Positions 2,785-24,514 of a stretch of 64,000 bases of DNA are shown here, in pieces (the first letter of the stretch is position 1; the number at the start of each line of letters is the position of its first letter). Source of the stretch: Escherichia coli. Lineage in GTDB: Bacteria; Pseudomonadota; Gammaproteobacteria; Enterobacterales; Enterobacteriaceae. The notes below the pieces were generated by a model. It ran no database searches. It was not told where the DNA came from and worked only from the letters and a program-made list of their open reading frames with translations. The stretch is from assembly GCF_024223415.1 (NCBI RefSeq), contig NZ_CP100500.1; one strand, written 5' to 3'. Made by a program: the position numbers and the translations under genes.

Positions 2785-4755
2785 ATGTATATGAATGTAA
2801 TCAGAACTGTCATTTGTACATTAATTATAGTCCCGGTGGGACTACAGGCAGCGACCAGTCATTCTTCTATGGCTAAAGATACAATCACCATTGTCGCGAC
2901 AGGAAATCAGAACACGGTATTTGAAACGCCGTCGATGGTCAGTGTCGTCACGAATGACACACCGTGGAGTCAGAATGCGGTTACATCGGCCGGCATGCTG
3001 AAAGGTGTTGCCGGTCTCAGCCAGACTGGTGCAGGACGGACCAATGGGCAGACCTTTAATCTACGCGGCTATGACAAAAGCGGGGTACTTGTTCTTGTTG
3101 ACGGCGTCCGCCAACTTAGTGACATGGCAAAAAGCAGTGGCACTTATCTGGATCCGGCTCTTGTCAAACGTATCGAAGTTGTCCGCGGGCCAAACTCCAG
3201 TCTGTACGGCAGTGGCGGGCTGGGAGGTGTAGTGGACTTCAGAACTGCCGATGCAGCAGATTTCCTTCCCCCCGGAGAGACAAACGGTTTAAGTCTGTGG
3301 GGAAATATTGCCAGTGGTGACCACAGCACAGGCTCGGGGCTCACCTGGTTCGGTAAAACCGGAAAAACAGATGCGCTCCTTTCTGTCATTATGCGTAAAA
3401 GAGGTAATATCTATCAAAGTGATGGTGAGCGCGCACCTAACAAGGAAAAACCTGCAGCCCTGTTTGCGAAAGGCTCTGTCGGTATAACAGACAGTAACAA
3501 AGCAGGTGCCAGCTTGCGTCTCTACCGGAATAACACCACTGAACCGGGCAATCCCACTCAGACACATGGTGACAGCGGCCTGCGTGACAGAAAAACAGTA
3601 CAAAATGACGTACAGTTCTGGTACCAGTACGCTCCTGTGGATAACAGCCTCATCAATGTACAGTCAACGTTATATCTCAGTGATATCACTATCAAGACAA
3701 ACGGTCACAACAAAACGGCAGAATGGAGAAACAACAGAACCTCCGGTGTTAATGTTGTCAACAGGAGTCATACTCTGATTTTTCCGGGAGCCCATCAGTT
3801 AAGTTATGGCGCTGAATATTACCGTCAGCAGCAGAAGCCAGAAGGCTCTGCCACACTATATCCGGAAGGAAATATTGACTTTACATCGTTGTATTTCCAG
3901 GATGAAATGACAATGAAAAGCTACCCTGTTAACATTATCGTCGGTTCCCGCTATGACCGGTACAAGAGCTTCAATCCCCGTGCCGGAGAACTGAAAGCCG
4001 AACGCCTGTCCCCAAGGGCGGCGATTTCAGTCTCACCGACAGACTGGCTGATGATGTACGGCTCCATATCCTCTGCATTCCGAGCGCCCACAATGGCAGA
4101 AATGTACAGGGATGATGTACATTTTTACCGCAAGGGTAAACCCAATTACTGGGTTCCTAACCTTAATCTGAAACCAGAAAATAACATCACCCGTGAGATT
4201 GGCGCAGGTATTCAACTGGATGGCCTGCTTACAGACAATGACCGGCTGCAGTTAAAAGGCGGATATTTCGGAACGGATGCCAGAAACTATATTGCCACAC
4301 GCGTGGATATGAAACGGATGCGTTCTTATTCTTATAATGTATCCCGGGCCCGTATCTGGGGATGGGATATGCAGGGAAATTACCAGTCTGATTATGTTGA
4401 CTGGGTGCTTTCTTATAACCGGACGGAAAGTATGGATGCCAGCAGCAGGGAATGGCTGGGCTCCGGCAATCCTGACACACTTATCAGTGACATCAGCATA
4501 CCTGTTGGTCATAGAGGCGTTTATGCCGGATGGCGTGCTGAACTTTCAGCATCAGCCACGCATGTGAAAAAAGGCGACTCCTATCAGGCTGGCTATGCCA
4601 TACATTCCTTTTCACTGTCTTATAAGCCTGTAAGTGTTAAAGGCTTTGAGGCGTCAGTAACTCTGGATAATGCCTTCAACAAGCTTGCCATGAATGGCAA
4701 AGGTGTGCCGCTTTCAGGCCGAACTGTCAGTCTTTATACCCGTTATCAGTGGTAA
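2785..4755 (+). CDS. TonB-dependent outer-membrane receptor, heme/hemoglobin type
   Basis: 656 aa; signal peptide, plug-domain motifs, FRAP motif (SAFRAPTMAEMY) and NPNL-like box (VPNLNLKPE), C-terminal aromatic residue (YQW). Confidence 0.85.
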   Translation: MYMNVIRTVICTLIIVPVGLQAATSHSSMAKDTITIVATGNQNTVFETPSMVSVVTNDTPWSQNAVTSAGMLKGVAGLSQTGAGRTNGQTFNLRGYDKSGVLVLVDGVRQLSDMAKSSGTYLDPALVKRIEVVRGPNSSLYGSGGLGGVVDFRTADAADFLPPGETNGLSLWGNIASGDHSTGSGLTWFGKTGKTDALLSVIMRKRGNIYQSDGERAPNKEKPAALFAKGSVGITDSNKAGASLRLYRNNTTEPGNPTQTHGDSGLRDRKTVQNDVQFWYQYAPVDNSLINVQSTLYLSDITIKTNGHNKTAEWRNNRTSGVNVVNRSHTLIFPGAHQLSYGAEYYRQQQKPEGSATLYPEGNIDFTSLYFQDEMTMKSYPVNIIVGSRYDRYKSFNPRAGELKAERLSPRAAISVSPTDWLMMYGSISSAFRAPTMAEMYRDDVHFYRKGKPNYWVPNLNLKPENNITREIGAGIQLDGLLTDNDRLQLKGGYFGTDARNYIATRVDMKRMRSYSYNVSRARIWGWDMQGNYQSDYVDWVLSYNRTESMDASSREWLGSGNPDTLISDISIPVGHRGVYAGWRAELSASATHVKKGDSYQAGYAIHSFSLSYKPVSVKGFEASVTLDNAFNKLAMNGKGVPLSGRTVSLYTRYQW

Positions 4756-4773
4756 CCTCTCAGGAAATAAATC

Positions 4774-5565
4774 ATGATGAAAAATACAGGCTATATCTTA
4801 GCTCTTTGTCTGACAGCATCGGGGCATGTCCTGGCCCATGATGTCTGGATTACCGGCAAACAGGCAGAGAACAACGTTATCGCAGAGATTGGTTATGGTC
4901 ATAATTTCCCCTCAAAGGGCACGATTCCTGACAGAAGGGATTTCTTTGAAACTCCCCGGCTTTATAACGGGAAAGAGACAATAACGCTGAAGCCAACATC
5001 CACGGATTATGTCTATAAAATTGAGACTGCAGGCAACGGTAATAGCTACGTTCTGTCAACGAAAATGAAACCGGGATACTGGTCGAGAACCTCGTCAGGA
5101 TGGAAGCCTGTCAGCCGGGAGGGCAGAAATGATGTGGCATACTGTGAGTTTGTGACTAAATATGCAAAATCTTTTATTCCTGGTGAACAGCAGATGCCAG
5201 CACAACTCTATCAGTATCCAATAGGGGATGAGCTTGAAATCATTCCGTTATCCGATATCAGTCGTTTCGGTGAAGATGTGAAGCTGAAAGTTCTGTATAA
5301 AACTTCCCCGCTTGCCGGAGCCACTCTGGAGCTTGACTCTGTCAGTTATCTGAAATCATCCCGCCATACTCATGCGGCAGAGCATAAACATTCGGCTCAT
5401 AAAGCAGAACTTACCTTTGTAAGTAATGAGGACGGTATCATCACTGTACCCTCCCTTCATGTCGGGCAATGGCTAGCTAAAGTCAAAAATAAGAAAGTAT
5501 TTCAGGACAAAAACCTGTGTGATGAAACTGTCGATGTGGCAACCTTAAGCTTCTCCCGAAATTAA
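4774..5565 (+). CDS. Secreted periplasmic protein, DUF4198-like, receptor-associated
   Basis: 263 aa with signal peptide; mature N-terminus AHDVWITG; immediately downstream of the receptor in the same orientation (19-bp gap); family assignment from memory only. Confidence 0.6.
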   Translation: MMKNTGYILALCLTASGHVLAHDVWITGKQAENNVIAEIGYGHNFPSKGTIPDRRDFFETPRLYNGKETITLKPTSTDYVYKIETAGNGNSYVLSTKMKPGYWSRTSSGWKPVSREGRNDVAYCEFVTKYAKSFIPGEQQMPAQLYQYPIGDELEIIPLSDISRFGEDVKLKVLYKTSPLAGATLELDSVSYLKSSRHTHAAEHKHSAHKAELTFVSNEDGIITVPSLHVGQWLAKVKNKKVFQDKNLCDETVDVATLSFSRN

Positions 5566-6849: not shown

Positions 6850-8454
6850 ATGAACAATGAACTCCCCGACGATATTGAGCTGCTTAAAGCCATGTTGCGT
6901 AAGCAACAGAGTCGGCTTCGCCAGTATACCTGTCAGGTCGCGGGCTATGAGCAGGAAATTGAACGGCTGAAAGCGCAACTCGACAGGTTGCGTCGTATGT
7001 TGTTCGGCCAGAGTTCAGAGAAAAAGCGTCATAAGCTTGAAAATCAGATCCGACAGGCAGAAAAACGACTGTCGGAACTGGAAAACCGGCTGAACACAGC
7101 CAGAAATCTTCTGGAAGATGCATCGTCAGTCACAGATTCACCTGACACCAGTCCCCCGTCAGAAAACCCGATCGCCAGTAAGCCTGAATCCCTGGGACGA
7201 AAATCTTCACGAAAACCGCTGCCGGCAGAACTTCCCCGGGAGACACATCGCCTTCTGCCTGCTGAAACCAGTTGCCCGGCCTGTGGAGGTGTTCTGAAAG
7301 AAATGGGGGAAACAATCTCAGAGCAACTGGATATCATTAATACCGCCTTTAAAGTTATTGAAACCATACGTCCCAAACGGGCCTGTAGCCGGTGCGACCA
7401 TATTGTGCAGGCGCCGGTTCCTTCAAAACCCATTGCACGCAGTTATGCCGGAGCGGGGCTTCTGGCTCATATCGTCACCGGGAAGTATGCAGACTATCTG
7501 CCGTTATACCGCCAGTCAGAAATATACCGTCGTCAGGGCGTGGAACTGAGCCGCGCCACGCTGGGGCGCTGGACCGGTGCCGTTGCTGAACTGCCGGAGC
7601 CGCTGTATGACGTGCTGCGCCAGTATGTGCTGATGCCCGGTAAAGTCCATGCGGATGATATCCCCGTTCCGGTCCAGGAGCCGGGCAGCGGTAAAACCCG
7701 GACAGCCCGGCTGTGGGTCTACGTCCGTGATGACCGCAATGCCGGTTCGGAAATGCCCCTGGCGGTCTGGTTCGCGTACAGTCCGGACCGGAAAGGCATA
7801 CATCCCTAGACTCATCTGGCCGGTTACAGCGGAGTGCTTCAGGCCGATGCTTACGGTGGCTACCGGGCGTTATACGAATCCGGCAGAATAACGGAAGCCG
7901 CGTGTATGGCTCATGCCCGGAGAAAAATCCACGATGTGCATGCAAGAGTGCCAACCGACATCACCACGGAAGCCCTGCGGCGTATCGGTGAACTGTATGT
8001 CATCGAGGCAGAAGTCCGGGGATGTTCAGCAGAACAGCGTCTGGCGGTAAGAAAAGCCAGAGCTGCGCCACTGATGCAGTCACTGTATGACTGGATACAG
8101 ACTCAGATGAAAACACTGTCGCGTCACTCGGATACGGCAAAAGCGTTCGCATACCTGCTGAAACAGTGGGATGGCCTGAACGTGTACTGCAGTAATGGCT
8201 GGGTGGAAATCGACAACAACATCGCAGAGAACGCCTTACGGGGAGTGGCCGTAGGCCGGAAAAACTGGCTCTTCGCGGGTTCCGACAGCGGTGGCGAACA
8301 TGCGGCGGTGTTGTACTCGCTGATCGGCACATGCCGTCTGAACAATGTGGAACCAGAAAAATGGCTGCGTTACGTCATTGAGCATATCCAGGACTGGCCG
8401 GCAAACCGGGTACGCGATCTGTTGCCCTGGAAAGTGGATCTGACCTCTCAGTAA
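6850..8454 (+). pseudogene. tnpC: IS66-family transposase TnpC interrupted by an in-frame TAG at 7807..7809
   Basis: ORFs 6850..7809 and 7834..8454 are in the same frame; the paralog at 44049..45587 reads ...[10 protein letters not shown]... where this copy reads ...KGIHP*THLA..., consistent with CAG to TAG. Confidence 0.85.
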
Positions 8455-8491: not shown

Positions 8492-10205
8492 GTGAATTAT
8501 GTTAATTATGTTTTCAGGCAGATGCTTCTCTGTCTGTTATTGTTCTGGCTGCCTGTATCCTGGGCTACCGAAAGTGGCTGGTTGCGTTCTCCTGAGAATG
8601 AGCATGCCAGTATACGGATACGTGCTGATTCCGTGGTCTCCGGGGAAACACGTGTTTTGCTGGACGTTAAACTGGATAACGGCTGGAAAACTTACTGGCG
8701 CTCACCCGGATAAGGGGGGATTGCACCGTCAGTCGACTGGAAAAGTGAAACACCGGAAGTGGAGTGGTACTGGCCTGGCCTTCACGTTTTGACGTGGCCG
8801 GCATTACCACTACGGGATATCACAACACAGTCACGTTTCCCGTGGTGTTACGTGGTATATCACCTGAGAGGATCACTGGCGTACTGACCCTGCCTGTCTG
8901 CAGCAATGTCTGTCTGCTGACCGATTACCCTTTCACTGTGAATGTTTCCACACAGGATACAACATTTGCACATGATTACGCACAGGCCATGGGGAAAATT
9001 CCGCTTTCCCATGGGGTAGCGGATTCCTTAAACGCGGTTTACCGACCTGGTGGACTGCTCATTACCGCAATACGGGCAGACGGCTGGTCATCTCCGGATA
9101 TTTATCTGGATTCTGTTGATTATGCAAGCTTCGGTAAGCCGCAGATGCAGATTGACGGCAAGAATCTGCTCGCATCTGTGCCGGTCACGGACAACTGGGG
9201 AGAGGGGGCGCCGGACCTGACTGGCCAACAAGTCACACTGGTTATTGAAAGCGGCGGCCTCGCTCAGGAAAGTACGCTTACGGTTGCGGCAGGTGCAACC
9301 AAAATAGCAGAGAATGTCTTACCTCTTTGGCAGGTCACTCTGATGGCATTAGCTGGTGGACTCATTCTTAACCTGATGCCCTGTGTATTACCGGTTCTGG
9401 GGATGAAGCTGGGCTCAGTTTTACTGGTGGAAGAGAAAAACCGTCAGCAGATTCGATGTCAGTTTCTGATGTCTGTAGCCGGGATCCTTACTTCCTTTAT
9501 GGCTCTGGCTACGTTAATGACCCTTCTGCGGCTGACAAACCGGGCTCTGGGGTGGGGGATCCAGTATCAGAGTCCCTGGTTTATTGTTCTGATGACGCTG
9601 GTTATGCTGATTTTTAGTGCCAGTCTGTTTGGCCTGTTTGAGTTCCGCCTGCCTTCCGGCCTCATGACTCGTCTGGCGACATTTGGTGGTAATGGAATGT
9701 CCGGACATTTCTGGCAGGGCGCTTTTGCGACTCTTCTGGCGACACCGTGTAGCGCCCCCTTCCTCGGTACGGCAGTGGCAGTGGCGCTGACGGCATCACT
9801 ACCCACTCTGTGGGGGATTTTCTTTGCACTGGGCGTGGGAATGAGTCTTCCGTGGCTGTTGGTGGCGTTGCGACCCGGGCTTGCGTTGTGTTTGCCCCAT
9901 CCGGGAGGATGGATGAATATTTTGCGTCGGGTGCTTGGCCTGATGATGCTGGGTTCTGCCTTCTGGCTGACAACACTGTTACTGCCACACTTGGGAGTAT
10001 CCTCACACAGTACAACGAAAGAACAGGTTGTCTGGCAGCCTCTCAGTGAACAGGCGATTAAGGAGGCGCTGGCTCAGCATAAGCGGGTATTTATCGATGT
10101 GACTGCAGACTGGTGTGTTACCTGTAAATTCAATAAATACAATGTGCTGCAAAAAGACAATGTGCAGAAGTCGCTGCAGGAGGCGGATGTTGTTGCACTG
10201 CGTGG
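8492..10205 (+). pseudogene. scsB: DsbD-family thiol:disulfide interchange protein (ScsB-like), decayed and 3'-truncated
   Basis: N-terminal ORF stops at TAA 8711..8713, frame resumes in 8764..; central transmembrane core and C-terminal thioredoxin motif WCVTCK present; reading frame runs into IS629 at 10206. Confidence 0.7.
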
Positions 10206-10259
10206 TGAACCGCCCCGGGAATCCTGGAGACTAAACTCCCTGAGAAAGAGGTAAACAGA

Positions 10260-10586
10260 ATGACTAAAAATACTCGTTTTTCCCCCGAAGTCCGTCAGAG
10301 GGCGATTCGTATGGTTCTGGAAAGTCAGGGCGAATATGACTCACAGTGGGCGGCAATTTGTTCCATTGCCCCAAAGATTGGCTGTACACCGGAGACTCTG
10401 CGTGTCTGGGTACGCCAGCATGAGCGGGATACCGGAGGCGGTGATGGCGGGCTCACCACCGCTGAACGTCAGCGTCTGAAAGAGCTGGAACGTGAAAATC
10501 GTGAACTGCGCCGCAGTAACGATATCCTTCGCCAGGCTTCCGCTTATTTTGCGAAGGCGGAGTTCGACCGCCTCTGGAAAAAGTGA
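10260..10586 (+). CDS. IS629 OrfA
   Basis: [59 protein letters not shown]... Confidence 0.9.
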
Positions 10587-11473
10587 TGCCACTGCTGGAT
10601 AAGCTGCGTAAGCTGTACGGGGTCGGACCGGTATGCAGTGAACTACATATTGCCCCGTCAACGTATTACCACTGTCAGCAACAGCAGCATCATCCTGATA
10701 AACGCAGCGCCCGTGCGCAGCGTGATGACTGGCTGAAGAAAGAGATACAGCGCGTATACGATGAAAATCACCAGGTGTACGGTGTGCGTAAAGTCTGGCG
10801 TCAGTTGTTACGGGAAGGTATCAGAGTGGCCAGATGCACTGTGACACGTCTTATGGCGGTTATGGGTTTTGCCGATGTTCTCCGGGGTAAAAAGGTCCGC
10901 ACTACCGTCAGCCGGAAAGCCGTTGCCGCAGGCGACCGCGTAAACCGTCAGTTTGTGGCAGAACGTCCTGACCAGTTGTGGGTGGCTGATTTTACTTACG
11001 TCAGCACATGGCAGGGGGTCGTCTATGTGGCGTTCATCATTGATGTGTTTGCCGGATACATCGTGGGGTGGCGGGTCTCATCGTCTATGGAAACGACATT
11101 CGTGCTGGATGCTCTGGAGCAGGCGTTATGGGCCCGTCGACCGTCCGGCACAGTCCATCACAGTGATAAAGGTTCTCAGTATGTATCGCTGGCCTACACA
11201 CAGCGGCTTAAGGAAGCCGGATTACTGGCATCAACAGGAAGTACTGGTGACTCGTATGACAACGCGATGGCGGAGAGCATCAATGGCCTTTACAAAGCGG
11301 AGGTAATACACCGTAAGAGCTGGAAAAACCGGACAGAAGTGGAGCTGGCCACACTCACGTGGGTGGACTGGTATAACAATCGACGATTGCTGGAAAGGCT
11401 GGGCCATATCCCACCGGCAGAAGCAGAAAAAGCTTATTATGCTTCCATCGGAAACGATGATCTGGCAGCCTGA
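10583..11473 (+). CDS. IS629 OrfB (DDE transposase)
   Basis: 296 aa with integrase catalytic core ...[13 protein letters not shown]...[10 protein letters not shown]...; overlaps OrfA as in IS3-family frameshift arrangement. Confidence 0.9.
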
Positions 11474-11523: not shown

Positions 11524-11790
11524 GTGGCGGCTTTATCTGCCAGGGGAGAGAATGTGATGACGATTGCATACCGTTCCGGCTCATCTGATGAGGTGAGCCG
11601 GAAGCTGGCTCTCAGGAGGAACAGGTTCCCGGTGATCAATGATGCTGATGGCACAATATCCCGTTTATGGAGAATTAGAGTAACCCCGACGTTCGTAGTG
11701 ATATCGAAGGGGCGGGTAATCTCCACAACCAGCGGCTGGACCAGTTCCTGGGGGATGAAGCTACGACTGCGGTGGGCCACAATAGTCTGA
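11524..11790 (+). pseudogene. Possible thioredoxin-like (TlpA/ScsD-like) C-terminal fragment
   Basis: Translation ...FPVINDADGTISRLWRIRVTPTFVVISKGRV... resembles the C-terminal part of a TlpA-like thioredoxin fold; no N-terminal CxxC region present. Confidence 0.35.
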
Positions 11791-12119
11791 GCAGAAGACA
11801 GCCTTCTGAGAAGGAAACCTTTCAGAAGACGCCCTTACCAAAGTTGGTGATGGAAAGACTGTTGGCAGAGAGACAGATGGACATATCCGGTCGCGCTTAT
11901 GAGACAAGTCTGTGGTCACAGAGCCTGTTTATCACTCAGTGTAAATGTCTTTTCTCAGTCGGGGGCCGTCCAGACGATAACTGGGTCCGATAATAAAGCT
12001 ACATCGCCCATTTTTGTGATGCTGCCTGGATTACCGGCTGTACGGCCTTGTACTGAGAAACAGAAAAAGACTTCAGTCACCCGGCGAAAACGGTCCCTGT
12101 CCCCCCGTTACCTTATTCG

Positions 12120-12239
<120 letters not shown>

Positions 12240-12301
12240 TACCCATCTGAAACCCGAACAGTTGTCCATACGCTATAACGCATTTGCAAGGATGGGTAAT
12301 C

Positions 12302-12600
12302 ATGAGTCAGCCAAATCAGCTTTGTGTGGGTATTGATGTTTCTAAAACAACTCTTGACATTGCTACTGCTAACAACGAGTTTGCTCAGTTTACTTCTTGT
12401 AACGACACCGATGGTTTTTAGCTCATCATTGCTGAATTGAGAAATCATTCGGTGGCGCTGGTTTTGATGGAGGCTACTGGTGGGTTTGAAGCTGCTGTAG
12501 CCTGTTCACTTTAGGCTGAAGGTTTTGATATAGCTGTTATCAATCCCAGACAGGCCAGGAATTTCTCTCGTGCTAAAATCAGTTATTTCCCGAGGTTGGA
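12302..12600 (+). pseudogene. IS110-family transposase N-terminal fragment with internal stops
   Basis: MSQPNQLCVGIDVSKTTLDIA...[38 protein letters not shown]...; two stop codons and loss of similarity after about 12600. Confidence 0.6.
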
Positions 12601-12787
12601 TAGCCCTGTCCGATCAACATTTCCCAACATAGCTCACAAAACAGACACTTTATTTATTGACTTTGTTTTAATATGTGATAAATACGGAGAAGTGGTCTAA
12701 CAGGTTTAATGATTGGTCGGACAAGATGATAATAAATGGCATTTTATATCAACCAATTTTCATGTTTATACATAGAGGAGGGATTAT

Positions 12788-13777
12788 ATGAAAATTAGGT
12801 TATTTATCCATTCGTTATTTTATTCATCAGTTCTGGTGACTTTGCTTATCAATAGCGTAAATGCCGCAGAAAAAGTGACATTAAAATTGGCACACAACCT
12901 TGAACGCAGTCATGTTGTACACCAGACTTTTGAACATCTGGCAAACGAGGTAAAACAACTTTCTAATGGCAATATTGTCATTCGTATATACCCCAGTAGC
13001 CAGATGGGTAATGCGCGAGAAACTATGGAGTTGTTACAAAATGGCGCACTGGATATGACCAAAGGTTCCGCCAGTGATCTGGAGTCTTTTGATAATATTT
13101 ATGCTATCTATAATTTGCCGTTCTTATTTAAAGATCAGGCGCACTTCAACAAAGTGGTTTTTGGTGAAGTTGGTAAAGAAATTATGGACTCAACAAAAGA
13201 CAAAGGCTTTTTTGCTTTATCAGCTTATGTAGCGGGTACTCGCAGTTTCTATGCGAAAAAACCGATTACTAAGCCAGAAGATCTTAAAGGGCTGAAAATT
13301 CGTGTTCAGCCAAGCCCGACCACCATCAAAATGATTGAACTGATGGGGGGCTCACCCACTCCAATTTCATTTGGCGAAGTTTATACTGCGATGCAGCAAG
13401 GTGTAGTAGATGGCGCAGAAAATAACGTGCCTTCCTGGGTGCAGACTCGACATATCGAAATTGCCAAAGTCTTTTCTGAAGATGAACATGCCTCAATTCC
13501 TGACTTTTTGGTTATCTCCACCAAAACATGGAATAAATTAACCCCAGAACAGCAACAAATCCTCGAAACAGCGGCGAAGAAATCCGAAGCTTATCAACAA
13601 AAATTGTGGGAAAAAATTGACGCTGACACACGTGCTCAGGCGAAAGCTATGGGTGGTGAAATCGTTAAGGTTGATAAAGCCCCATTCCGTGCCGCAGTTC
13701 AACCTCTGTTTGACGACTTCAAAAAAGATCCAAAACAAGCTGCTTTGTTAGAGAAATTCGACAACGCTGCTCAATAA
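12788..13777 (+). CDS. TRAP transporter substrate-binding protein (DctP family)
   Basis: 329 aa, signal peptide, DctP-like sequence; first of three co-directional TRAP genes; substrate unknown. Confidence 0.85.
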   Translation: MKIRLFIHSLFYSSVLVTLLINSVNAAEKVTLKLAHNLERSHVVHQTFEHLANEVKQLSNGNIVIRIYPSSQMGNARETMELLQNGALDMTKGSASDLESFDNIYAIYNLPFLFKDQAHFNKVVFGEVGKEIMDSTKDKGFFALSAYVAGTRSFYAKKPITKPEDLKGLKIRVQPSPTTIKMIELMGGSPTPISFGEVYTAMQQGVVDGAENNVPSWVQTRHIEIAKVFSEDEHASIPDFLVISTKTWNKLTPEQQQILETAAKKSEAYQQKLWEKIDADTRAQAKAMGGEIVKVDKAPFRAAVQPLFDDFKKDPKQAALLEKFDNAAQ

Positions 13778-13783
13778 TATTTC

Positions 13784-13807
13784 GGGCCAGTCTCTGGCCC
13801 TGATTTT
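13784..13807 (+). terminator. Stem-loop followed by T-run after the TRAP binding-protein gene
   Basis: GGGCCAGTCTCTGGCCC followed by TGATTTT. Confidence 0.4.
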
Positions 13808-13812
13808 CCAGG

Positions 13813-14325
13813 ATGCTTACAATGATATTTAACCGCCTGAAACTTGCGGTAGACCGCGTCATTGCCGCGTTTTCTGTCGCCGTCATGCTTGCTCTGGTTG
13901 TATGCGTAGTCTGGCAAGTATTTAGCCGCTACGTACTTAACCAGCCAAGTACATTAACCGATGAGCTGGCACGCTTTTTGATGATCTGGGTAGGATTATT
14001 AGGTGCTGCATATACCGTCGGCGCGCAGAGACATCTCTCTATCGATTTATTTGCTCTCGCCCTGAATAAGCGCAAGCAATTACTTCTTAGTATAGTCATT
14101 AACATTCTCATTTTAGGTTTTGCCGGTTCGGTCATTGTGACTGGTGGCCTGAAATTAATTGATAAAACACTGGCAACATCACAGGTATCTGCCGCGATGC
14201 AAATACCGATGGGATACGTATATATCATTCTGCCATTAAGTGGATTGGTGATGATGTTTTATGCCTTGTGTTTTATTAATCAAAGCATTCAACAACTGAA
14301 ACAACCTGCGCAGGAGGCCAGTTAA
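13813..14325 (+). CDS. TRAP transporter small permease (DctQ family)
   Basis: 170 aa hydrophobic protein with four predicted TM segments between the DctP and DctM genes. Confidence 0.8.
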   Translation: MLTMIFNRLKLAVDRVIAAFSVAVMLALVVCVVWQVFSRYVLNQPSTLTDELARFLMIWVGLLGAAYTVGAQRHLSIDLFALALNKRKQLLLSIVINILILGFAGSVIVTGGLKLIDKTLATSQVSAAMQIPMGYVYIILPLSGLVMMFYALCFINQSIQQLKQPAQEAS

Positions 14326-15626
14326 TGGATAGTTATATCGCGCTTACACTATTTGGCTGTTTTTTTGTGCTGGTCTTTATTGGTGTGCCCATTTCGTTCT
14401 CAATCGGTATTGCGACTGTAGCTTCAATGCTGTTGATGTTTCCCTGGGATATCGCGGCAATCACTGTTTCGCAACGATTGGCTAATGGACTGGATAACTT
14501 TGCCCTGTTGGCAATCCCCTTTTTCATCTTTGCCGGAACACTGATGAACAGCGGCGGTATTGCGATACGTTTGATTAACCTCGCCCAGGTAATGGTTGGC
14601 CGCGTTCCTGGTTCGCTTGGTCATGTGAACGTCCTGGCGAATATGATGTTTGGTTCCATTTCTGGTTCAGCCGTTGCGGCAGCTGCTGCCGTTGGTGGCA
14701 CACTGAATCCCATTCAGACCAAAGAAGGTTATGATCCGGCATTTTCTACCGCTGTAAACGTCTCATCTTGTATTACTGGATTACTGATACCGCCCTCAAA
14801 CGTGTTAATTGTATTTTCCCTGACAGCTGGCGGCGTTTCTGTAGCATCGCTATTTATGGCGGGATATTTGCCAGGGATCTTAATGGGTCTCGCGGTAATG
14901 ATAGTCTGCGGCATTATTGCTAAACGCCGTGGCTACCCACTTTCAGAAAGAGCAACCTTTGCTCAGGCATGTAAAGCGTTTCTGGATGCCTTACCAAGTT
15001 TGCTTCTGGTGTTCATTGTAATGGGCGGCATTCTGGGCGGCATTTTTACCGCAACTGAAGCGTCAGCAATTGCCGTGGTCTACACATTTATTCTCTCGGT
15101 GCTGATTTACCGGGAAGTAAAATGGCGCGATTTACCCAAACTGATTCTGGAGTCGGTTGTTACCACTTCGATTGTATTACTGTTGATCGGTTTTTCCGTG
15201 GGCATGTCCTGGGCAATGACCAATGCTGATATTCCTTATATGATCAGCGACGCGTTGATGGGGATTTCTGATAACCCACTGGTCATATTGCTGCTGATTA
15301 ATATCGTCTTATTAATTGTCGGCATCTTTATGGACATGACACCGGCTGTACTAATCTTCACACCAATCTTCTTGCCGATTGCACAAGAGCTGGGAATGGA
15401 TCCGGTACATTTCGGTATTATGATGGTGGCCAACCTTTGTATTGGGCTGTTAACACCGCCGGTGGGTAGTGCGCTATTTGTTGGTTGTTCTATTTCAGGT
15501 GTGAAGATTCAACATTTGCTTAGACCATTGCTACCCTTTTATACAGCATTGCTAGTCGCATTGATGATGATCACTTACATTCCACAAATCTCTTTATTTA
15601 TCCCACAATTTCTAGGGCTGATGTAA
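14325..15626 (+). CDS. TRAP transporter large permease (DctM family)
   Basis: 433 aa polytopic membrane protein; start overlaps the dctQ stop. Confidence 0.85.
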   Translation: MDSYIALTLFGCFFVLVFIGVPISFSIGIATVASMLLMFPWDIAAITVSQRLANGLDNFALLAIPFFIFAGTLMNSGGIAIRLINLAQVMVGRVPGSLGHVNVLANMMFGSISGSAVAAAAAVGGTLNPIQTKEGYDPAFSTAVNVSSCITGLLIPPSNVLIVFSLTAGGVSVASLFMAGYLPGILMGLAVMIVCGIIAKRRGYPLSERATFAQACKAFLDALPSLLLVFIVMGGILGGIFTATEASAIAVVYTFILSVLIYREVKWRDLPKLILESVVTTSIVLLLIGFSVGMSWAMTNADIPYMISDALMGISDNPLVILLLINIVLLIVGIFMDMTPAVLIFTPIFLPIAQELGMDPVHFGIMMVANLCIGLLTPPVGSALFVGCSISGVKIQHLLRPLLPFYTALLVALMMITYIPQISLFIPQFLGLM

Positions 15627-15635
15627 ATAATTAAT

Positions 15636-15658
15636 AGCCGGACAATTTTTATTGTCCG
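15636..15658 (+). terminator. Rho-independent terminator-like hairpin after dctM
   Basis: CCGGACAA-TTTTTATT-GTCCGG followed by A/T-rich sequence. Confidence 0.5.
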
Positions 15659-15670
15659 GTAAAATTCATC

Positions 15671-15761
15671 GTAAGCGCTCCTTCTGTGCCGTCTTGTGGT
15701 GGTTGTCCTGTCTGGCAACAATCGCGTCCATCTATTGATGGACACGAACGATGAATTCTCA
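15671..15761 (+). mobile_element. IS66-family left-end fragment (about 90 bp), truncated by IS2
   Basis: Begins GTAAGCG and contains a 60-bp stretch nearly identical to 5758..5820 including the MNSQ start of the accessory ORF; similarity ends at the IS2 junction. Confidence 0.65.
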
Positions 15762-15775
15762 GACTGGATTTGCCC

Positions 15776-16681
15776 CTATATTTCCAGACACCTGTTATCA
15801 CTTAACCCATTACTGGCTTGCTGCCGTAGATATTCCCGTGGCGAGCGATAACCCAGTGCACTATGCGGATGCCATTCGTTATAATGCTCGAACGCCTCTG
15901 CAAGGTTCTTTGCTGCCGTTAACCCGTCTGGTTTAGGCATGATACTGATGTAGTCACGCTTTATCGTTTTCACGAAGCTCTCTGCTATGCCGTTACTCTC
16001 CGGACTCCGCACCGCCGTGCTCTTCGGTTCAAGCCCCAACATCCGGGCAAACTGCCGTGTTTCATTAGCCCGGTAGCATGAACCATTATCCGTCAGCCAC
16101 TCTACTGGAGACGCCGGAAGCTCGTTGCCGAAGCGGCGTTCCACCGCTCCTGGCATGACGTCCTGTACTGTTTCACTGTTGAAGCCGCCCGTAGTGACCG
16201 CCCAGTGCAGTGCCTCACGGTCACAGCAGTCCAGCGCGAACGTGACTCGCAGTTTTTCTCCGTTATCACAGCGGAACTCGAACCCGTCAGAGCACCATCG
16301 CTGATTACTTTCTTTCACAGCCACTCTGCCTGTATGTGCCCGTTTCGATGGCGGTACAGCAGGTTTTCGCTCAAGCAACAGCGCATTCTGGCGCATGATC
16401 CGGTAAACACGTTTGGCATTGATCGCAGGCATACCATCAAGTTCTGCCTGTCTGCGAAGCAGCGCCCATACCCGACGATAACCATACGTGGGCAGCTCTC
16501 CGATAACATGGTGTATACGGAGAAGCACATCCGTATCATCTGAGTGACGGCTGCGGCGACCATCTTTCCAGTCATCGGTTCGTCTGAGAATGACGTGCAA
16601 CTGCGCACGCGACACCCGGAGACAACGGCTGACTAAGCTTACTCCCCATCCCCGGGCAATAAGGGCGCGTGCGCTATCCAC
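15776..16681 (-). CDS. insD: IS2 transposase InsD (OrfB)
   Basis: 301 aa matching IS2 InsD. Confidence 0.92.
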
Positions 16682-17004
16682 TTTTTTGCCCGTCCATATT
16701 CAACGGCTTCTTTGAGGAGTTCATTTTCCATCGTTTTCTTGCCGAGCAGGCGCTGGAGTTCTTTAATCTGCTTCATGGCGGCAGCAAGTTCAGAGGCAGG
16801 AACAACCTGTTCTCCGGCGGCGACAGCAGTAAGACTTCCTTCCTGGTATTGCTTACGCCAGAGAAATAACTGGCTGGCTGCTACACCATGTTGCCGGGCA
16901 ACGAGGGAGACCGTCATCCCCGGTTCAAAGCTCTGCTGAACAATTGCGATCTTTTCCTGTGTGGTAAGCCGTCTGCGTTTCTCCGGTCCTAAGACATCAA
17001 TCAT
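16639..17004 (-). CDS. insC: IS2 InsC (OrfA)
   Basis: [53 protein letters not shown]... Confidence 0.9.
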
Positions 17005-17096
17005 CTGCTCTCCAATGACTAGTCTAAAAACTAGTATTAAGACTATCACTTATTTAAGTGATATTGGTTGTCTGGAGATTCAGGGGGCCAGTCTAT

Positions 17097-17820: not shown

Positions 17821-18690
17821 TCATCCCCTGAACACCTCCCGCCGGTGCCACGCCACAAACCCCTCCTGGGGATAGCATTCTTTCCCCATCGGCAAGGTAA
17901 TCGGCTTACCATCAAAATCCCAGAACAACCTGCCAACGATGCCTCCGCCGTTCACCGCCGGCGAAACCTGGATGCGCATATCCTCATCCAGACCAATGGA
18001 TCCTTTATCAAAATCCTTATGGTGAATCGCGCAGAGCGCCAGGCCGTTAGGGATTTCGCAGGGGCCGCCGTGCTGCTTCCACTTGATATGGGCCGCTTCC
18101 AGGGCGACGGAGGTATTATCATGGCGCATATTGAAGCCGCAGATAGCGCACTCATAGTTATAGGCGCGCAGCACCTGCTGGCGAAAATGCGGGTCGCGCT
18201 CTTTGCGGATCTGCAGCAGATCAAACCCCATCTCTTCAGCCAGTTCTTCCTGAATACTCTCCGGAAAGTGCGCCTCAAGGATCTGATGGGCGAGGGTATT
18301 GATCAGCTTCTTATTTCTGTTAAGTAACGCAAAATGCTGCTCATCAAAGCCGCCGGCGACGTGGCAGAGCTCCAGCTCTTTGCCGGGCGGCTGTCGGCTG
18401 CCCTGGGTTGAGCACTGTTCGCTGTTGTGTAGCTCCCAGAAGCCGTCGCCTTTCAGGCGCCAGAAGGGCATGTCCGGCCGGTACTGGCGGCGCTGCGGGC
18501 CAAAGCGTTCCAGCAGGCTATGCAGCTCATCACGTATCTCCGAGGCGTAGTCGAACATCCGCGCATGGCCGCGCTGGTATTGCGAGAGGACGTACAGCAG
18601 CAATAGTGGTTTATGCGGCGCACGCTGTTCGCCTTTGCGCCAGATGGTGATGTTCTCGATCGCGTGTTGCAGGGTCGTGCTGGAGGGCAT
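17821..18690 (-). CDS. HNH endonuclease with an N-terminal putative modified-DNA-binding domain (candidate type IV restriction enzyme)
   Basis: 290 aa from the ATG at 18690; C-terminal HNH motif ...YNYECAICGFNMRHDNTSVALEAAHIKWKQHGGPCEIPNGLALCAIHHKDFDKG...; N-terminal about 170 aa (...APHKPLLLLYVLSQYQRG...FWRLKGDGFWEL...) recalled as resembling sulfur-binding-domain-HNH proteins. Confidence 0.6.
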   Translation of the reverse strand: MPSSTTLQHAIENITIWRKGEQRAPHKPLLLLYVLSQYQRGHARMFDYASEIRDELHSLLERFGPQRRQYRPDMPFWRLKGDGFWELHNSEQCSTQGSRQPPGKELELCHVAGGFDEQHFALLNRNKKLINTLAHQILEAHFPESIQEELAEEMGFDLLQIRKERDPHFRQQVLRAYNYECAICGFNMRHDNTSVALEAAHIKWKQHGGPCEIPNGLALCAIHHKDFDKGSIGLDEDMRIQVSPAVNGGGIVGRLFWDFDGKPITLPMGKECYPQEGFVAWHRREVFRG

Positions 18691-18869
18691 AGCGTTACAT
18701 TGGCAGCTAAATAAATGCGATGATGCTCGCAAAATCCTTGCCGATCAACCTACCAGATGCGGCGATTCTACGTGGATCGCGATTTAATTATCACTGCCAG
18801 TTATTTGTTCGAAAAGACCATAGCTTTCTATTTATACTCAAGCTTCGCGCCATCAGATAGCTATGTCTT

Positions 18870-19508
18870 ATGAAAAAACTACCGGACCATTTATCCAGGG
18901 AATGCATCATCGCCGCCATTCGCGCTTACGATGCAGGCGTTGCGCATCAGTTTAAAAGCGCGCGTCTGTATGAGATCGAGTTTGAGGGGCGTCGGTATCC
19001 TTCAAAAGCCATCGTCGGGTTAGCGGCCACGCTTGCGACGGGAACGGAATTTACCCCGGCGGATTTCAGCGGGGGGATTAAATCAAAATGCGTGCGTCTG
19101 TTACTGGAGCAAGGATTTACGATCGCGTCGCAGGGCGCTGGCGATGACGAGGTTGCGCTTTTCCCCGATGAGGGGCAGACGACCATGGAGTACGTGGAAG
19201 GGGCGGCGTTGCAGGTGGTGGTCAATCGCTATGAGCGCGACCGTCAGGCTCGTCAGGCGGCGCTTCGCCTGCATGGCTGCCAGTGTCAGGTATGCGGTCT
19301 GGATATGGCCAGCCGCTATGGCGATATCGGCCAGGGCTTTATCCATATCCACCATCTCATCCCGCTGGCCGGGATAAAGCAGGACTACCGCCTGAACCCT
19401 GAAACCGATCTGATCCCGGTATGTCCCAACTGCCATGCGATGCTGCACCGGCGAGATCCGCCGTTTACCCCCGAAGAGCTGAAGGCCCGGCTGCGCCCCA
19501 CAGACTGA
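18870..19508 (+). CDS. HNH endonuclease with a distinct N-terminal domain of unknown function
   Basis: 212 aa; C-terminal zinc-finger HNH ...CQCQVCGLDMASRYGDIGQGFIHIHHLIPLAG...PVCPNCHAMLH...; divergent from 17821..18690 across a 179-bp intergenic region. Confidence 0.6.
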   Translation: MKKLPDHLSRECIIAAIRAYDAGVAHQFKSARLYEIEFEGRRYPSKAIVGLAATLATGTEFTPADFSGGIKSKCVRLLLEQGFTIASQGAGDDEVALFPDEGQTTMEYVEGAALQVVVNRYERDRQARQAALRLHGCQCQVCGLDMASRYGDIGQGFIHIHHLIPLAGIKQDYRLNPETDLIPVCPNCHAMLHRRDPPFTPEELKARLRPTD

Positions 19509-19590: not shown

Positions 19591-21270
19591 TTACTTATCC
19601 CGCGTCTCGCCAGCCTCCCAGCTGTAGCTGCCATCGGCCGCTAAGCTATCGCCCAGCTCCTGATACTCGAACTGATAAAACTCAGCCTGGGTGCCGTACC
19701 CGGCGTAGTCTACCGCCGCCAGGCCGACGAACGCCCCGGTAAAGAACCCGCCGTAGCTCTGCAACACATAGTCATCGGACAGCACCGCGGCATCCAGCTG
19801 GACCGGGATCTCGGTGAACGTCACGCCATCGAAGCTGTATTCATAGCTGTAGGTCTGCTTGCGGACTTTGGTCCGGAACCAGACGTATTCCACGCCGTCC
19901 GGCACCTTGATGGCGTTATCTTTCAGGTACGACGTGTATTTCCCGCGGTTATTTTCGCCGACTTCGATGACCTTGCCGTTAATTTCATTCCAGGTCAGGA
20001 AGACGAAGCTCCAGTGGCGGTCGTTATAGTAATTCGTTAACCCGGCCATCTGCTGGTAGCTGAAGGGCTCGAATTTCACCTTCACCGCGGCGTCAAAATA
20101 GAAGGCCTGCCAGCGGCGGGCAATCAGCGACAGATCATGCGTATTGGCTAACGAGCCCTGGCCGATTAAGGTTAATTTGCCGTTACCGGTGGTGCCCATT
20201 TTGGCCGTAAACGGCACCCGCAGGGTATTCCAGTTCGGGTCGAGGGCTGGCGACGTAAAGTCATCCTGCTGGCTATTATCGCTGGCGCTTTCGGTGAAGA
20301 TGGCGTCTTTCGGTCCTTCGACGAAGGTTTTCCCGCCGTGACCGCCTTCAATACGCGGCCAGCCCTCGTCATCCCAGTACACTTTCTGGATCGCGGTTTC
20401 CCGGCCGAGGGTTGACCAGCCGCGCGGGTCGTAGATGGATTCCCCCGGGCGATTCCACGGCCGGGCGCAGAGCGAGGCGTAATACCATTCGCCTTCCGGG
20501 GTGGAGACCAGCGCGCCATGGCCCTGTTTCTGGATGTAGCTGTCCGGGGTGTCGACGTTGGTTAAGAACACGTCGCCCGGCTCGGTTTCAAAGCTGTCGG
20601 CCTCGAGGGTTTTCGACCGCGCCACCACCTCCTGGTGGGTAAACACGGTGCCGCCCTGGGCGGCAAACAGGTAGTAGTAGCCGTTCAGTTTATAGAGGTG
20701 CGGCCCCTCGACCAGCGCTACGGCGGTGCCGCGGTAGATGGTGCGCGCGGTTTCCGGCATTAACTTCAGCGTGTTGGTATCCAGCTCCGTTAAGGTAATG
20801 CCATCGAAGGGGTGATGGTACTCCCGGTGATCCCAGGTTTGCTGGACGATATATTTCCGGCCATCGTCGTCATGGAACAGCGAGGCGTCAAACCCGACTC
20901 CGTTCAGCTTGATCGGGTCGCTCCACGGGCCCCGAATATCCTTCGCGGTGGTCAGGTAGTTGGTCATGTCTTTGAAGGCGCCTTCGGTGACCTTCACATC
21001 GGTATACACCAACCAGAATTGCCCGTCGGCCCAGGAGAGCGCCGGCGCCCAAATGCCGCCGGAGGAGGGGTTGCCCTTCATGTCCAGCAGGGTGGTGGTG
21101 GAGAGCGGCGAAGGCAGCAGGTTCCAGTTTTTCAGGTCTTTCGACTCATGTAAACGCACGCCCGGAAACCACTCAAACGTCGAGTTGGCAATATAGTACG
21201 TATCCTCGACGCGAATAATACTGGGGTCGGCATTAAAGCCGCGTAATATCGGGTTTTGAATAAGTGACAT
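19591..21270 (-). CDS. xynB: Glycoside hydrolase family 43 beta-xylosidase (XynB-like)
   Basis: 559 aa; N-terminal GH43 five-bladed propeller motifs (...FNADPSIIRVEDTYYIANSTFEWFPGV...) plus C-terminal beta-sandwich; high GC. Confidence 0.85.
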   Translation of the reverse strand: MSLIQNPILRGFNADPSIIRVEDTYYIANSTFEWFPGVRLHESKDLKNWNLLPSPLSTTTLLDMKGNPSSGGIWAPALSWADGQFWLVYTDVKVTEGAFKDMTNYLTTAKDIRGPWSDPIKLNGVGFDASLFHDDDGRKYIVQQTWDHREYHHPFDGITLTELDTNTLKLMPETARTIYRGTAVALVEGPHLYKLNGYYYLFAAQGGTVFTHQEVVARSKTLEADSFETEPGDVFLTNVDTPDSYIQKQGHGALVSTPEGEWYYASLCARPWNRPGESIYDPRGWSTLGRETAIQKVYWDDEGWPRIEGGHGGKTFVEGPKDAIFTESASDNSQQDDFTSPALDPNWNTLRVPFTAKMGTTGNGKLTLIGQGSLANTHDLSLIARRWQAFYFDAAVKVKFEPFSYQQMAGLTNYYNDRHWSFVFLTWNEINGKVIEVGENNRGKYTSYLKDNAIKVPDGVEYVWFRTKVRKQTYSYEYSFDGVTFTEIPVQLDAAVLSDDYVLQSYGGFFTGAFVGLAAVDYAGYGTQAEFYQFEYQELGDSLAADGSYSWEAGETRDK

Positions 21271-21328
21271 TTCATTACACCTTTTAAAATGGAAAGTGAC
21301 GAATCGGTCTGATTTATAATTTTTTTAA

Positions 21329-22783
21329 CTACACGCGGATCTCATCCAGCTGACGGTTGATGTCGGTAACATGTTTATCGGAGATCGGATAAACCTGGAT
21401 AATCACCATCGAAATAGCGGCCAGCGCGATCGGGATCCACACCGCGGTCATAATGATCCCGTCGATGGCGCTGGCGCTCTGCACGGCGCCGCTTTCATTA
21501 AAGCCATACACCGCCAGCAGCCACAGCGGGATCGCGCCGCCGATGGTGAAGCCGATCTTGAAGAAGAGTCCCATAATGGCATTGATAATGGCGGCATTGC
21601 GTTTGCCAGATTTTAATTCGCCGTACGCGATGACTTCCGGTACCAGCGCCCACATAAAGCCGGTGGCGGAGGTTAAGCCCCACTGTTTAATAAAGGTGGC
21701 GATGTAGGCCAGCCACAGGGCGTCGTGCATCCCTTCGCGGGACCAGACGTAGGTCAGCAGTTCGCCGACGATAAACATGGCGAGGAACAGATGGAAGAAG
21801 CCTTTTTTACCAAAGATTTTTTTCAGTTTCGGCCAGAAAATCGGGAAGGCGATGCCGGGAATAGACGCGACGAGACCCACCGCGCCCATCCATTCGGAGT
21901 GGCCGACGACGTACTGGTTGAAGAAGCCGTTAACAGTGTTCATGAAGAACATGAAGGTAAAGGCCAGCATAAAGAACATGCCCAGAATAACCAGCGGGCG
22001 GTTATGTCGGAGCTCGTGGAAAAGGTCGGTGGTTTTGACGTTGGCGGTCTGCTCGGCGGTCGCGACAACGCGTTCTTTGGTGAATTTATAACAGATAAAC
22101 AGAGCCACCGCGCCGATGATCATATAGATGGCGTACACGCCAAACCAGGCGTAATTTGCCGACGGATCGGCATAATTCCCCAGATTCAGCTCAAGGCCAA
22201 AAAAGCCGGTGTCTTTCAGGCTGCGATCTTTCGGCGCCGCCATCTGCACAAACATCGGGAACAGGGTATAGACCAGCAGGTTGGCGCTGTTGGCCAGCAT
22301 CATGCGGGTACTGGTCAGTTTATCGATCGATTCCGGGTCGCGGGTCAGCGACGCATTCAGCGAGCCATAGGGAATATTGACTAAGGAATAAACCAGGTCC
22401 AGCGCCAGATAAATAATAAAGGCGAAAGCCACCGAACCTTTCACTCCGGGGATGGGCGCGAACAGTAATGCCGAGAGGATCACCAGCGGCACGCCGGCTC
22501 GTAACAGCCACGGACGATATTTCCCTGCCTTCGAGGTTCGTTTATCCACGTAGGTGCCGACCATCGGATCCCAAAACACGTTAATTATGCGGACAAAAAG
22601 AAAAATAAAGCCTGCCGTTGCCGTGCTGATGGTATTTACCGTCAGCATATGCAAAGCCAGAAAACCCCCAATTGTGCCGAAAACCAGGTTTTGCGCAAAG
22701 TCGCCCATGCCATAACCAATTCGTTCTCCACGGGTTAATTTATGATATTCATCATGCCGACTGTGCATTATGTTTTTACTCAT
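21329..22783 (-). CDS. Glycoside-pentoside-hexuronide (GPH) family cation symporter, xyloside transporter-like
   Basis: Polytopic membrane protein with GPH-family N-terminus (...RIGYGMGDFAQNLVFGTIGGF...); start chosen at MSKNIM; co-directional with the xylosidase. Confidence 0.8.
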   Translation of the reverse strand: MSKNIMHSRHDEYHKLTRGERIGYGMGDFAQNLVFGTIGGFLALHMLTVNTISTATAGFIFLFVRIINVFWDPMVGTYVDKRTSKAGKYRPWLLRAGVPLVILSALLFAPIPGVKGSVAFAFIIYLALDLVYSLVNIPYGSLNASLTRDPESIDKLTSTRMMLANSANLLVYTLFPMFVQMAAPKDRSLKDTGFFGLELNLGNYADPSANYAWFGVYAIYMIIGAVALFICYKFTKERVVATAEQTANVKTTDLFHELRHNRPLVILGMFFMLAFTFMFFMNTVNGFFNQYVVGHSEWMGAVGLVASIPGIAFPIFWPKLKKIFGKKGFFHLFLAMFIVGELLTYVWSREGMHDALWLAYIATFIKQWGLTSATGFMWALVPEVIAYGELKSGKRNAAIINAIMGLFFKIGFTIGGAIPLWLLAVYGFNESGAVQSASAIDGIIMTAVWIPIALAAISMVIIQVYPISDKHVTDINRQLDEIRV

Positions 22784-23194
22784 TCTAAGCAGACTCCGGT
22801 TTGTTTTGTGTAGGTGAAACACTTTCTGACACAGTTGACATGGAAGAATCTATTACGTTTTTAAATTAAGTAATTATGTTTTTTTACTTCTGTGATCCTC
22901 GAAGCAAAGGCCTGTATCACCTGCGTTGAGCCGCCATCCGCCGCTAATTTTTTGGCAGACAGGCAATGTGACAAAACCGGCATTTTAATTCGCTATGCCC
23001 ACCTGAATTCCCCAGGAAGTGTACTCTATACGCGCGCGAAGCGAGATATTTAAAATAGTTTTATTTGCGAGATGGCTCACATTTGAGCATTTTCTCAATC
23101 GCTGAGTGAAATAACGTAATTGAGCAACCGACGATGAGAATACACGATGTGTCACAGTTGTTAATTTTCGGCTTCCTCAATTTCGGAGTTCATC

Positions 23195-24514
<1,320 letters not shown>

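Follow-up and report, generated by a model that had tools for sequence, protein, structure and literature searches.

A TRAP transporter operon on a mosaic island of Escherichia coli and its probable role in hexuronate uptake

Transporters of the TRAP (tripartite ATP-independent periplasmic) type (TC 2.A.56) combine a family-7 extracytoplasmic solute-binding protein with a DctQ subunit of four and a DctM subunit of 12 transmembrane segments, all encoded together, and their import is driven by a cation gradient. The operon described here, dctPQM, encodes an intact DctP-type TRAP transporter and lies between an IS110 fragment and a complete IS2 element in a stretch of 64,000 nucleotides of Escherichia coli contig NZ_CP100500.1, the whole of which is referred to below as the window. 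We consider it reasonably probable that the transporter takes up hexuronates (D-glucuronate and/or D-galacturonate, as predicted from its relatives), is repressed by ExuR and feeds the core hexuronate pathway.

Among the described systems, STM3169-STM3171 of Salmonella Typhimurium (Herman et al. 2020, PMC7660916) is a D-glucuronate TRAP transporter whose binding protein has a Kd of 0.17-0.25 µM and which was proposed to act beside the permease ExuT, feeding UxuABC and the Entner-Doudoroff pathway. Like the island operon, it is an enterobacterial three-gene TRAP operon without adjacent catabolic or regulatory genes. It is found, however, at a different chromosomal locus than the hemW-yggM interval in which E. 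coli relatives of the island operon reside, and the two binding proteins were compared by the pattern of their binding residues. E. coli ExuT has the same proposed substrates and probably the same repressor as the island operon, but it belongs to an unrelated family, being a single-component major facilitator superfamily (MFS) permease without a binding protein; its affinity is described as lower (PMC7660916). The other DctP-type TRAP system of E. coli, YiaMNO (2,3-diketo-L-gulonate), is of a different subfamily, and the cut-offs of its equivalogs (NF007374 and NF011634) are not reached by the island proteins (37.5 bits against 260 for YiaM and 296.9 against 800 for YiaN).

Further relatives are the hexuronate-binding TRAP solute-binding proteins of the Enzyme Function Initiative (EFI), of which Bamb_6123 (4LN5/4N15/4N17), a Xanthobacter autotrophicus protein (4OVR), Rsph17029_2138 (4X8R), Bpro_3107 (4MHF/4MIJ), Apre_1383 (4N91) and BBta_0128 (4N8Y) were compared. 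They have the same fold as the island DctP (template modelling (TM) score 0.87-0.88, root-mean-square deviation (rmsd) 1.3-1.4 Å), provide its best sequence matches (E 2e-69 to 3e-59) and share with it the motifs ARSFYA, KIRVQ, DGAENN and EH..P[DE], which carry the carboxylate-binding Arg/Arg/Asn. On the other hand, identity in the fold alignments amounts to 34-38%, their loop GSEK(D/E) reads G(N/S)ARE in the island protein, with Ala76 for Glu, D239 likewise stands for Glu, and they originate from α- and β-proteobacteria and a Firmicute, not from Enterobacteriaceae.

Relatives of DctP and the predicted substrate

An AlphaFold2 model of DctP (pLDDT 94.9) was compared with known structures using Foldseek. 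The 15 best matches (TM 0.86-0.88, rmsd 1.3-1.5 Å) all belong to this one group of EFI structural-genomics TRAP binding proteins, with TM scores of 0.87-0.88 to 4ln5, 4ovr, 4n15, 4x8r and 4mhf, and the same group supplies the best sequence matches in the PDB (E 2e-69 to 3e-49). SiaP proteins score far more weakly (about 1e-39). We take 4OVR, 4N15/4N17, 4PF8, 4XFE, 4OVQ, 4P1L and 4X04 to hold hexuronates as well. Four documented hexuronate binders are found among the closest relatives by both sequence and fold: 4N91 (Apre_1383) binds D-glucuronate and 4MHF (Bpro_3107) both D-glucuronate and D-galacturonate (PMC7660916), while 4X8R holds glucuronate and 4N8Y galacturonate (PMC11668362).

Within DctP, R172 is situated within the KIRVQ motif and aligns to the solved structures, R152 and R172 are invariant in an alignment of 68 sequences, and the carboxylate-binding triad R152/R172/N212 is kept, as are N37 and D239. 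It is a conserved arginine that pairs with the substrate carboxylate in TRAP binding proteins (R147 in SiaP). Out of the seven ligand contacts named for STM3169 and Apre_1383 (N35, Q36, E74, R150, R170, N210 and D237; PMC7660916), five are present in the island DctP, N35, R150, R170, N210 and D237 of STM3169 corresponding to N37, R152, R172, N212 and D239. A first-pass annotation of the window had called for such a comparison of ligand-binding residues; it gave agreement at these five positions and differences at L38 and A76, to which we return below. Among 389 retrieved proteins, the best match to the STM3169 residue pattern was six of the seven positions, in a Vibrio/Pasteurellaceae-type protein (P0124), and a database search seeded with that protein returned no Salmonella protein.

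The gene context of homologues was also examined. In Aeromonas molluscorum, A. rivuli and Pantoea sp. IMH, an operon with 59-61% identity lies between the divergent uxaC-uxaB-uxaA genes and exuR, which is the position of exuT in E. coli K-12. The DctP proteins of these exu loci have the same N37-L38, TRSFY, R172, ENN, H234 and PDF residues as the island protein and share with it the loop QMGx[A/P]RE and most of the remaining residues around the pocket. They differ from it at positions 40, 75, 76, 174, 176, 214 and 217, among others, and their operon is linked to enzymes and repressor, whereas the island operon is unlinked. A 53% identical homologue is followed by genes for a GntR/FCD regulator and UxuA, and a 54% identical one is located directly downstream of a mannonate/altronate-type dehydrogenase gene. 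The first-pass annotation had held that the substrate cannot be inferred; with hexuronate binders as the nearest neighbours in fold and sequence, and with homologues of 53-61% identity in uxa/exuR or uxu clusters, that statement no longer applies. It was right, on the other hand, that no cognate enzyme or regulator gene is nearby, as tblastn searches with E. coli UxaA, UxaC, ExuT, ExuR, GntP, UxuA, UxuB and UxuR gave no match in the window. The alternative to an orphan transporter that it had in mind, a close orthologue of a characterised system with its partner genes elsewhere, was found in part: partners elsewhere are well supported, but identity to the solved hexuronate binders is only 29-38%.

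Candidate operators and proposed regulation in trans

When the dctP upstream regions of five genera were aligned, two odd-centred palindromes, at about -88 and about -66, proved conserved. Box 1 is conserved at -85 to -90 across genera. For box 2, conserved counterparts in E. coli, Leclercia and Citrobacter lie at -63 to -69, and the alignment shows box 2 in Klebsiella and Kluyvera as well. In the operon resident between hemW and yggM in E. coli, the two boxes read AAGTTGTCAGACAGGTT and AATTTGTCGCACAAAGC. Boxes of the ExuR type in the same arrangement also precede dctP in the exu-locus Aeromonas and Pantoea. For comparison, operators were derived from the sequence of K-12 itself, not from a published ExuR consensus: the uxaC-exuT and exuR regions contain AAGTTGTATGACAAGTT (the exuT operator), AAGTGGTATAACAAATA and AAGTTATCACACCAATT. 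Box 1 of the island agrees with the K-12 operators of exuT and exuR at 13 of the 17 positions in each case (manual count).

A matrix built only from TRAP-upstream boxes was scanned over 10 kb of the K-12 exu region and 9 kb of the uxu region. In the former, the exuT operator ranked first with 20.3 bits, the exuR operator third with 13.1 and the uxaC operator fourth with 11.1. Rank two (14.8-14.9 bits) was taken by CAGATGTCATACAGGTT, positions 4582-4598 of the K-12 locus (L010), which lies about 160 bp inside the 5' part of uxaC and may be an additional ExuR operator. Conversely, with a matrix made from the three K-12 exu-region operators only, island box 1 is the top match in the whole window (14.9 bits), resident box 1 comes first in its 33 kb locus, and the TRAP boxes come first in the Kluyvera, Salmonella and Leclercia loci. 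The presence, judged by sequence similarity, of ExuR-type operators upstream of dctP suggests regulation in trans by the ExuR of the core genome, which is probably the most economical reading of these sites. UxuR was considered as regulator and rejected: the UxuR sites in the gntP-uxuA and uxuR regions are even-spaced (TGGTnnACCA), and nothing in the uxu region exceeds 9.3 bits with the TRAP matrix.

Other upstream elements are less easily assigned. A TGTGA motif upstream of box 1 is similar to that of the exuT promoter. As a CRP site it has a poor right half, and it may equally be an extended -10. Some 150 bp upstream of dctP, Escherichia, Kluyvera and Salmonella share a third conserved element, ..AGCGCACAAAA.. 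(at about 12618-12636 in the window, CAACATAGCTCACAAAACA, and at about 14973-14989 in the resident E. coli locus L002), which may be another regulator site.

Taken together, the following mechanism is proposed. DctP would be exported to the periplasm and close around the sugar acid, whose carboxylate would be gripped by R172 with the help of R152 and N212. It would then deliver the sugar acid to DctQM for import driven by a cation gradient, with a presumptive coupling ion. The imported hexuronate would enter the core Ashwell pathway through UxaC, UxuB/UxaB, UxuA/UxaA, KdgK and Eda, and ExuR, presumably bound to the two boxes upstream of dctP, would repress the operon in trans until hexuronate is present. 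Since the enzymes and the repressor are encoded in the core genome, the operon would need no adjacent enzyme or regulator gene. If the island copy is expressed, as we infer, it would complement the ExuT permease as an uptake system of high affinity.

Several observations weigh against this proposal. Two of the STM3169/Apre_1383 contacts, Q36 and E74, are replaced by L38 and A76 in the island protein (P76 in the Aeromonas proteins of the exu loci); alternative contact residues are also used by Bpro_3107, a binder of both hexuronates (PMC7660916). Identity to the solved hexuronate binders is 29-38% in fold alignments, indicating family membership rather than close orthology, and the literature searched contained no experimental work on the E. 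coli operon or its DctP orthologue. As for the regulator, Klebsiella box 1 is not among the top matches with the K-12-derived matrix, and a matrix from the non-Escherichia TRAP boxes leaves the island boxes outside the top eight of the window. Moreover, operators of the FadR subfamily are alike, DgoR sites having the same odd-palindrome shape, so that the regulator could be another GntR protein. As for expression from the island, its promoter region shares only about 71% identity with that of the resident operon.

The main competing explanation is that the operon imports another sugar acid (for example D-fructuronate/tagaturonate, D-galactonate, L-galactonate/L-gulonate, mannonate or 2-keto-3-deoxygluconate) under the control of another FadR-type GntR regulator such as UxuR, DgoR or LgoR. 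We regard it as unlikely, though by no means negligible. The pocket does differ from the glucuronate-specific proteins at positions 38 and 76, and STM3169 itself gave a thermal shift with D-galactonate (PMC7660916); nevertheless, all best structural neighbours with documented ligands bind hexuronates. The neighbours of the 53-54% identical homologues, uxuA and the mannonate/altronate-type dehydrogenase gene, also serve fructuronate and aldonate routes, but the closest syntenic case places the operon at the exuT position, between uxaCBA and exuR. Finally, the odd-palindrome architecture is shared by DgoR operators, yet resident box 1 of E. coli has 14 of 17 positions in common with the exuT operator and 10 of 17 with DgoR IR1 (manual count), and the operator matrix picks out sites of the ExuR region, not the UxuR sites of the uxu region.

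The resident operon and its island copy

Positions 12658-15663 of the window share 95.5% identity with a TRAP operon found between hemW and yggM in many E. coli strains, for example UPEC132; homology to this native locus starts at about 12612-12658 and ends at 15663. The resident operon occurs in 1440-1489 of 5426 complete E. coli genomes (about 27%), and orthologues with 81-92% protein identity fill the hemW-yggM/yggN slot in Klebsiella, Kluyvera, Salmonella and Leclercia, whereas in Buttiauxella the operon occupies a different locus. At every enterobacterial locus examined, that of Buttiauxella included, it consists of the bare three genes. Missing neighbours are thus the normal state of this family in Enterobacteriaceae and not a trait of the island, contrary to the notion that the orphan status is peculiar to this locus. 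With uxaC-exuT-exuR present in 5422 of the 5426 genomes, the orphan appearance of the operon probably arises only because ExuR, its probable regulator, and the enzymes are encoded elsewhere in the core genome. Synonymous divergence between the resident E. coli operon and the syntenic operons of other genera is saturated. The 'GR 21' TRAP locus of strain BEN2908 was considered as a representative of the same system and ruled out, as it sits at ygiQ..ftsP.

The three genes are contiguous, and the start of dctM overlaps the dctQ stop codon by 1 nt (Table 1). DctP, DctQ and DctM give full-length matches to PF03480 (7.7e-85), PF04290 (3.2e-30) and PF06808 (3.6e-121), respectively, and DctP and DctM exceed the family cut-offs of TIGR00787 (284 bits) and TIGR00786 (474 bits), confirming that the genes are intact. 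The N-terminus of DctP (MKIR followed by a hydrophobic run and VNA|AEK) is Sec-signal-like, and its helix has a lower confidence in the AlphaFold2 model; the protein looks like an exported periplasmic protein whose signal peptide would end at VNA|AEK. The initial annotation of a terminator for every gene does not hold: the dctQ/dctM overlap, together with one intercistronic and one terminal hairpin, indicates a single operon. The hairpin directly after dctM is likely the operon terminator or a bidirectional stem-loop, the T tract that follows it on the + strand being weak only, and the dctP-dctQ stem-loop may serve attenuation or mRNA stabilisation. Terminator-like sites in the TRAP region as a whole are no more frequent than in shuffled sequence.

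The AT-rich character noted in the first-pass annotation was borne out: the guanine-plus-cytosine (GC) content is 0.438 in the operon, whereas the flanks, taken as 5 kb on either side, have 0.514 and 0.543. The resident E. coli operon (L002, 15127-17962) has a GC content of 0.44 as well, which makes low GC a property of the Escherichia allele, not an effect of the island; the syntenic operons of Klebsiella, Kluyvera, Salmonella and Leclercia are at 0.51-0.55, near their own flanks. Two other initial statements needed revision. Position 12302, taken as the start of the TRAP unit, is the start of the IS110 pseudogene, and of the insertion sequence (IS) fragments said to flank the operon, the left one is indeed a fragment but the right one is a complete IS2.

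Table 1. Features in and around the dctPQM segment, with positions in the window
Feature	Position	Strand	Remarks
IS66 tnpC C-terminus	7834-8454		Left flank
DsbD-family protein-disulfide reductase gene	8764-10254		Left flank; cut by IS3-family element
IS3-family element, open reading frames (ORFs)	10260-11473		Left flank; interrupts DsbD-family gene
Short remnant ORF	11524-11790		Partial protein disulfide oxidoreductase in RefSeq (NZ_CP033635.1); no NCBIfam match
IS110-family transposase N-terminal fragment, pseudogene	12302-12574	+	Two in-frame stops in translation
Promoter/regulatory region	12612-12787	+	Homologous to 3' part of hemW-dctP intergenic region; aligned with four other genera
Possible -35, TTGACT	~12652-12657	+	Authors' reading of the sequence; promoter hexamers not picked up by consensus scan
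TGTGATAAAT motif	12674-12683		In promoter region upstream of dctP
Candidate operator box 1, AAGTGGTCTAACAGGTT	12690-12706	.	Odd-centred GntR/FadR-type palindrome, ExuR-type
Candidate operator box 2, GATTGGTCGGACAAGAT	12711-12727	.	Same type as box 1, 21 bp downstream of it
Shine-Dalgarno, GGAGG	12777-12781	+	Upstream of dctP; read from sequence
dctP	12788-13777	+	Periplasmic solute-binding subunit, 329 aa
Stem-loop GGGCCAG-TCT-CTGGCCC	13784-13800	+	Intercistronic dctP/dctQ; -13.5 kcal/mol, z -2.3
dctQ	13813-14325	+	Small membrane subunit, 170 aa from first ATG; RefSeq start 13822 (167 aa)
dctM	14325-15626	+	Large membrane (transport) subunit, 433 aa
Strong hairpin	15637-15660	.	Directly after dctM; -16 kcal/mol, z -5.5
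Complete IS2	15765-17095	-	1331 bp; InsC/InsD ORFs; both terminal inverted repeats; NCBIfam IS2 TnpA and TnpB

The island copy is a second, rare recombinant copy of the hemW-yggM operon. Positions 12000-15760 of the window are 100% identical to one complete genome, that of the chicken isolate ECCNB12-2 (NZ_CP033635.1), where they lie in a similar pseudogene-rich island, and the island-type 5' end is present in only one of the 5426 complete genomes, which also has a resident copy. Differences from the resident allele are unevenly spread: 91 out of 140 fall in 12658-13057 and 31 in 15458-15657, while the central 2.4 kb (13058-15457) is 99.3% identical. Identity to E. coli drops to 71% upstream, 82% in the 5' coding part and 85% at the 3' end, and the GC content of the diverged ends is 0.38 and 0.40 versus 0.45 and 0.42. 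Of the 19 differences between the island and resident DctP, 14 affect the signal peptide. DctQ does not differ from the resident E. coli protein (WP_021542650.1), and DctM is 98.8% identical, all five differences being within the last 35 residues. No donor of the diverged ends was recognized: E. coli itself (82% and 85%) is at least as close as any of the 44 related loci recovered when species-representative genomes were scanned. Codon changes in the two diverged ends are mostly synonymous (18 synonymous versus 5 non-synonymous, and 13 versus 5), and the whole-gene ratios of non-synonymous to synonymous substitution rates (dN/dS) relative to the resident allele are low (0.16, 0 and 0.065 for the three TRAP genes), which indicates that both parental alleles were under purifying selection and argues for recombination, not decay. 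Judged by these ratios and codon changes, the genes look functional.

A silent passenger, that is, an unexpressed duplicate trapped between IS elements and heading for decay, would account for the rarity of the island copy in a genome that has the resident copy as well, for the pseudogenes next to it and for an upstream region that is strongly diverged and truncated by the IS110 fragment. Such a copy is nevertheless improbable in our judgement, because none of the three ORFs is shortened, synonymous changes prevail among the codon differences, the diverged ends included, and the copy has kept its Shine-Dalgarno sequence, its two operator boxes and the hairpin at its end. There is only a slim chance, in turn, that the island copy is a non-redundant recombinant allele, in which promoter, operators, signal peptide and DctM C-terminus from an unsampled lineage were placed on an E. 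coli-like core. If so, this avian E. coli would gain a second uptake system for hexuronate with different regulation or export, or one for sugar acids with altered specificity, which would add to its gut or extraintestinal fitness. Least credible of all is a C4-dicarboxylate (succinate, fumarate, malate) transporter, for which only the family name speaks, the Pfam and TIGRFAM families being named after Rhodobacter DctPQM, whereas the true C4-dicarboxylate DctP structures 9dsy, 9dtl and 9ht3 score at E of about 1e-31 to 1e-32 compared with 2e-69 for the top group. Next to the operon no DctBD-type regulator was seen: the annotation of the otherwise identical NZ_CP033635.1 island shows no sensor-regulator pair within 15 kb flanks, and none was called beside the operon at other loci. 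Synteny and operators, too, point to hexuronate genes.

The IS elements on either side are the edges of the mobilised segment and lie outside the transporter. On the left, the IS110 fragment is the edge; the identical sequence in NZ_CP033635.1 is annotated by RefSeq as a partial IS110 transposase. On the right, it is the IS2, the end sequences of which we take to be IS2 inverted repeats and the length of which is presumably canonical. The first 25,000 positions of the window form a mosaic whose segments occur separately in different strains. The stretch as a whole was found in no complete E. coli genome searched, and the best coverage of the first 25 kb was 58%.

Several features of the surrounding island were noted in passing. 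A TonB-dependent receptor gene and a DUF4198 gene (2785-5565) constitute a conserved left part of the island that is common to NZ_CP033635.1 and strain GF60. The DsbD-family gene lacks the IS3 insertion in NZ_CP033635.1, yet is frameshifted there. Just beyond IS2, at 17821-19508, lies a gene for a phosphorothioated-DNA-binding restriction endonuclease (NF045808, 438 bits), with a gene for an HNH endonuclease next to it. They are followed at 19591-24514 by genes for a glycoside hydrolase family 43 (GH43) glycosidase, an MFS transporter and a second xylA-like xylose isomerase, probably a module for xyloside/arabinoside utilisation. In strain GF60, this module directly adjoins the TonB-receptor/DUF4198 genes, without the TRAP segment.

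Implications for the predicted hexuronate uptake in Enterobacteriaceae

The orphan status and the IS context of dctPQM both have ordinary explanations, and what remains is an uncharacterised TRAP operon of a known type. The island copy itself, a rare IS-associated recombinant, changes little. That partner genes are missing from the neighbourhood proved a poor sign of oddity; the case was resolved by considering regulation in trans and by comparing genera. Both candidate substrates are nutrients of the gut, glucuronate being derived from host glucuronides and galacturonate from pectin. In Salmonella, a high-affinity hexuronate system has been linked to survival in macrophages (PMC7660916). The analysis provides a testable substrate and a testable regulator for a transporter that is annotated only as 'TRAP transporter substrate-binding protein' and that is present in 1440 of 5426 E. 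coli genomes and in many Enterobacteriaceae.

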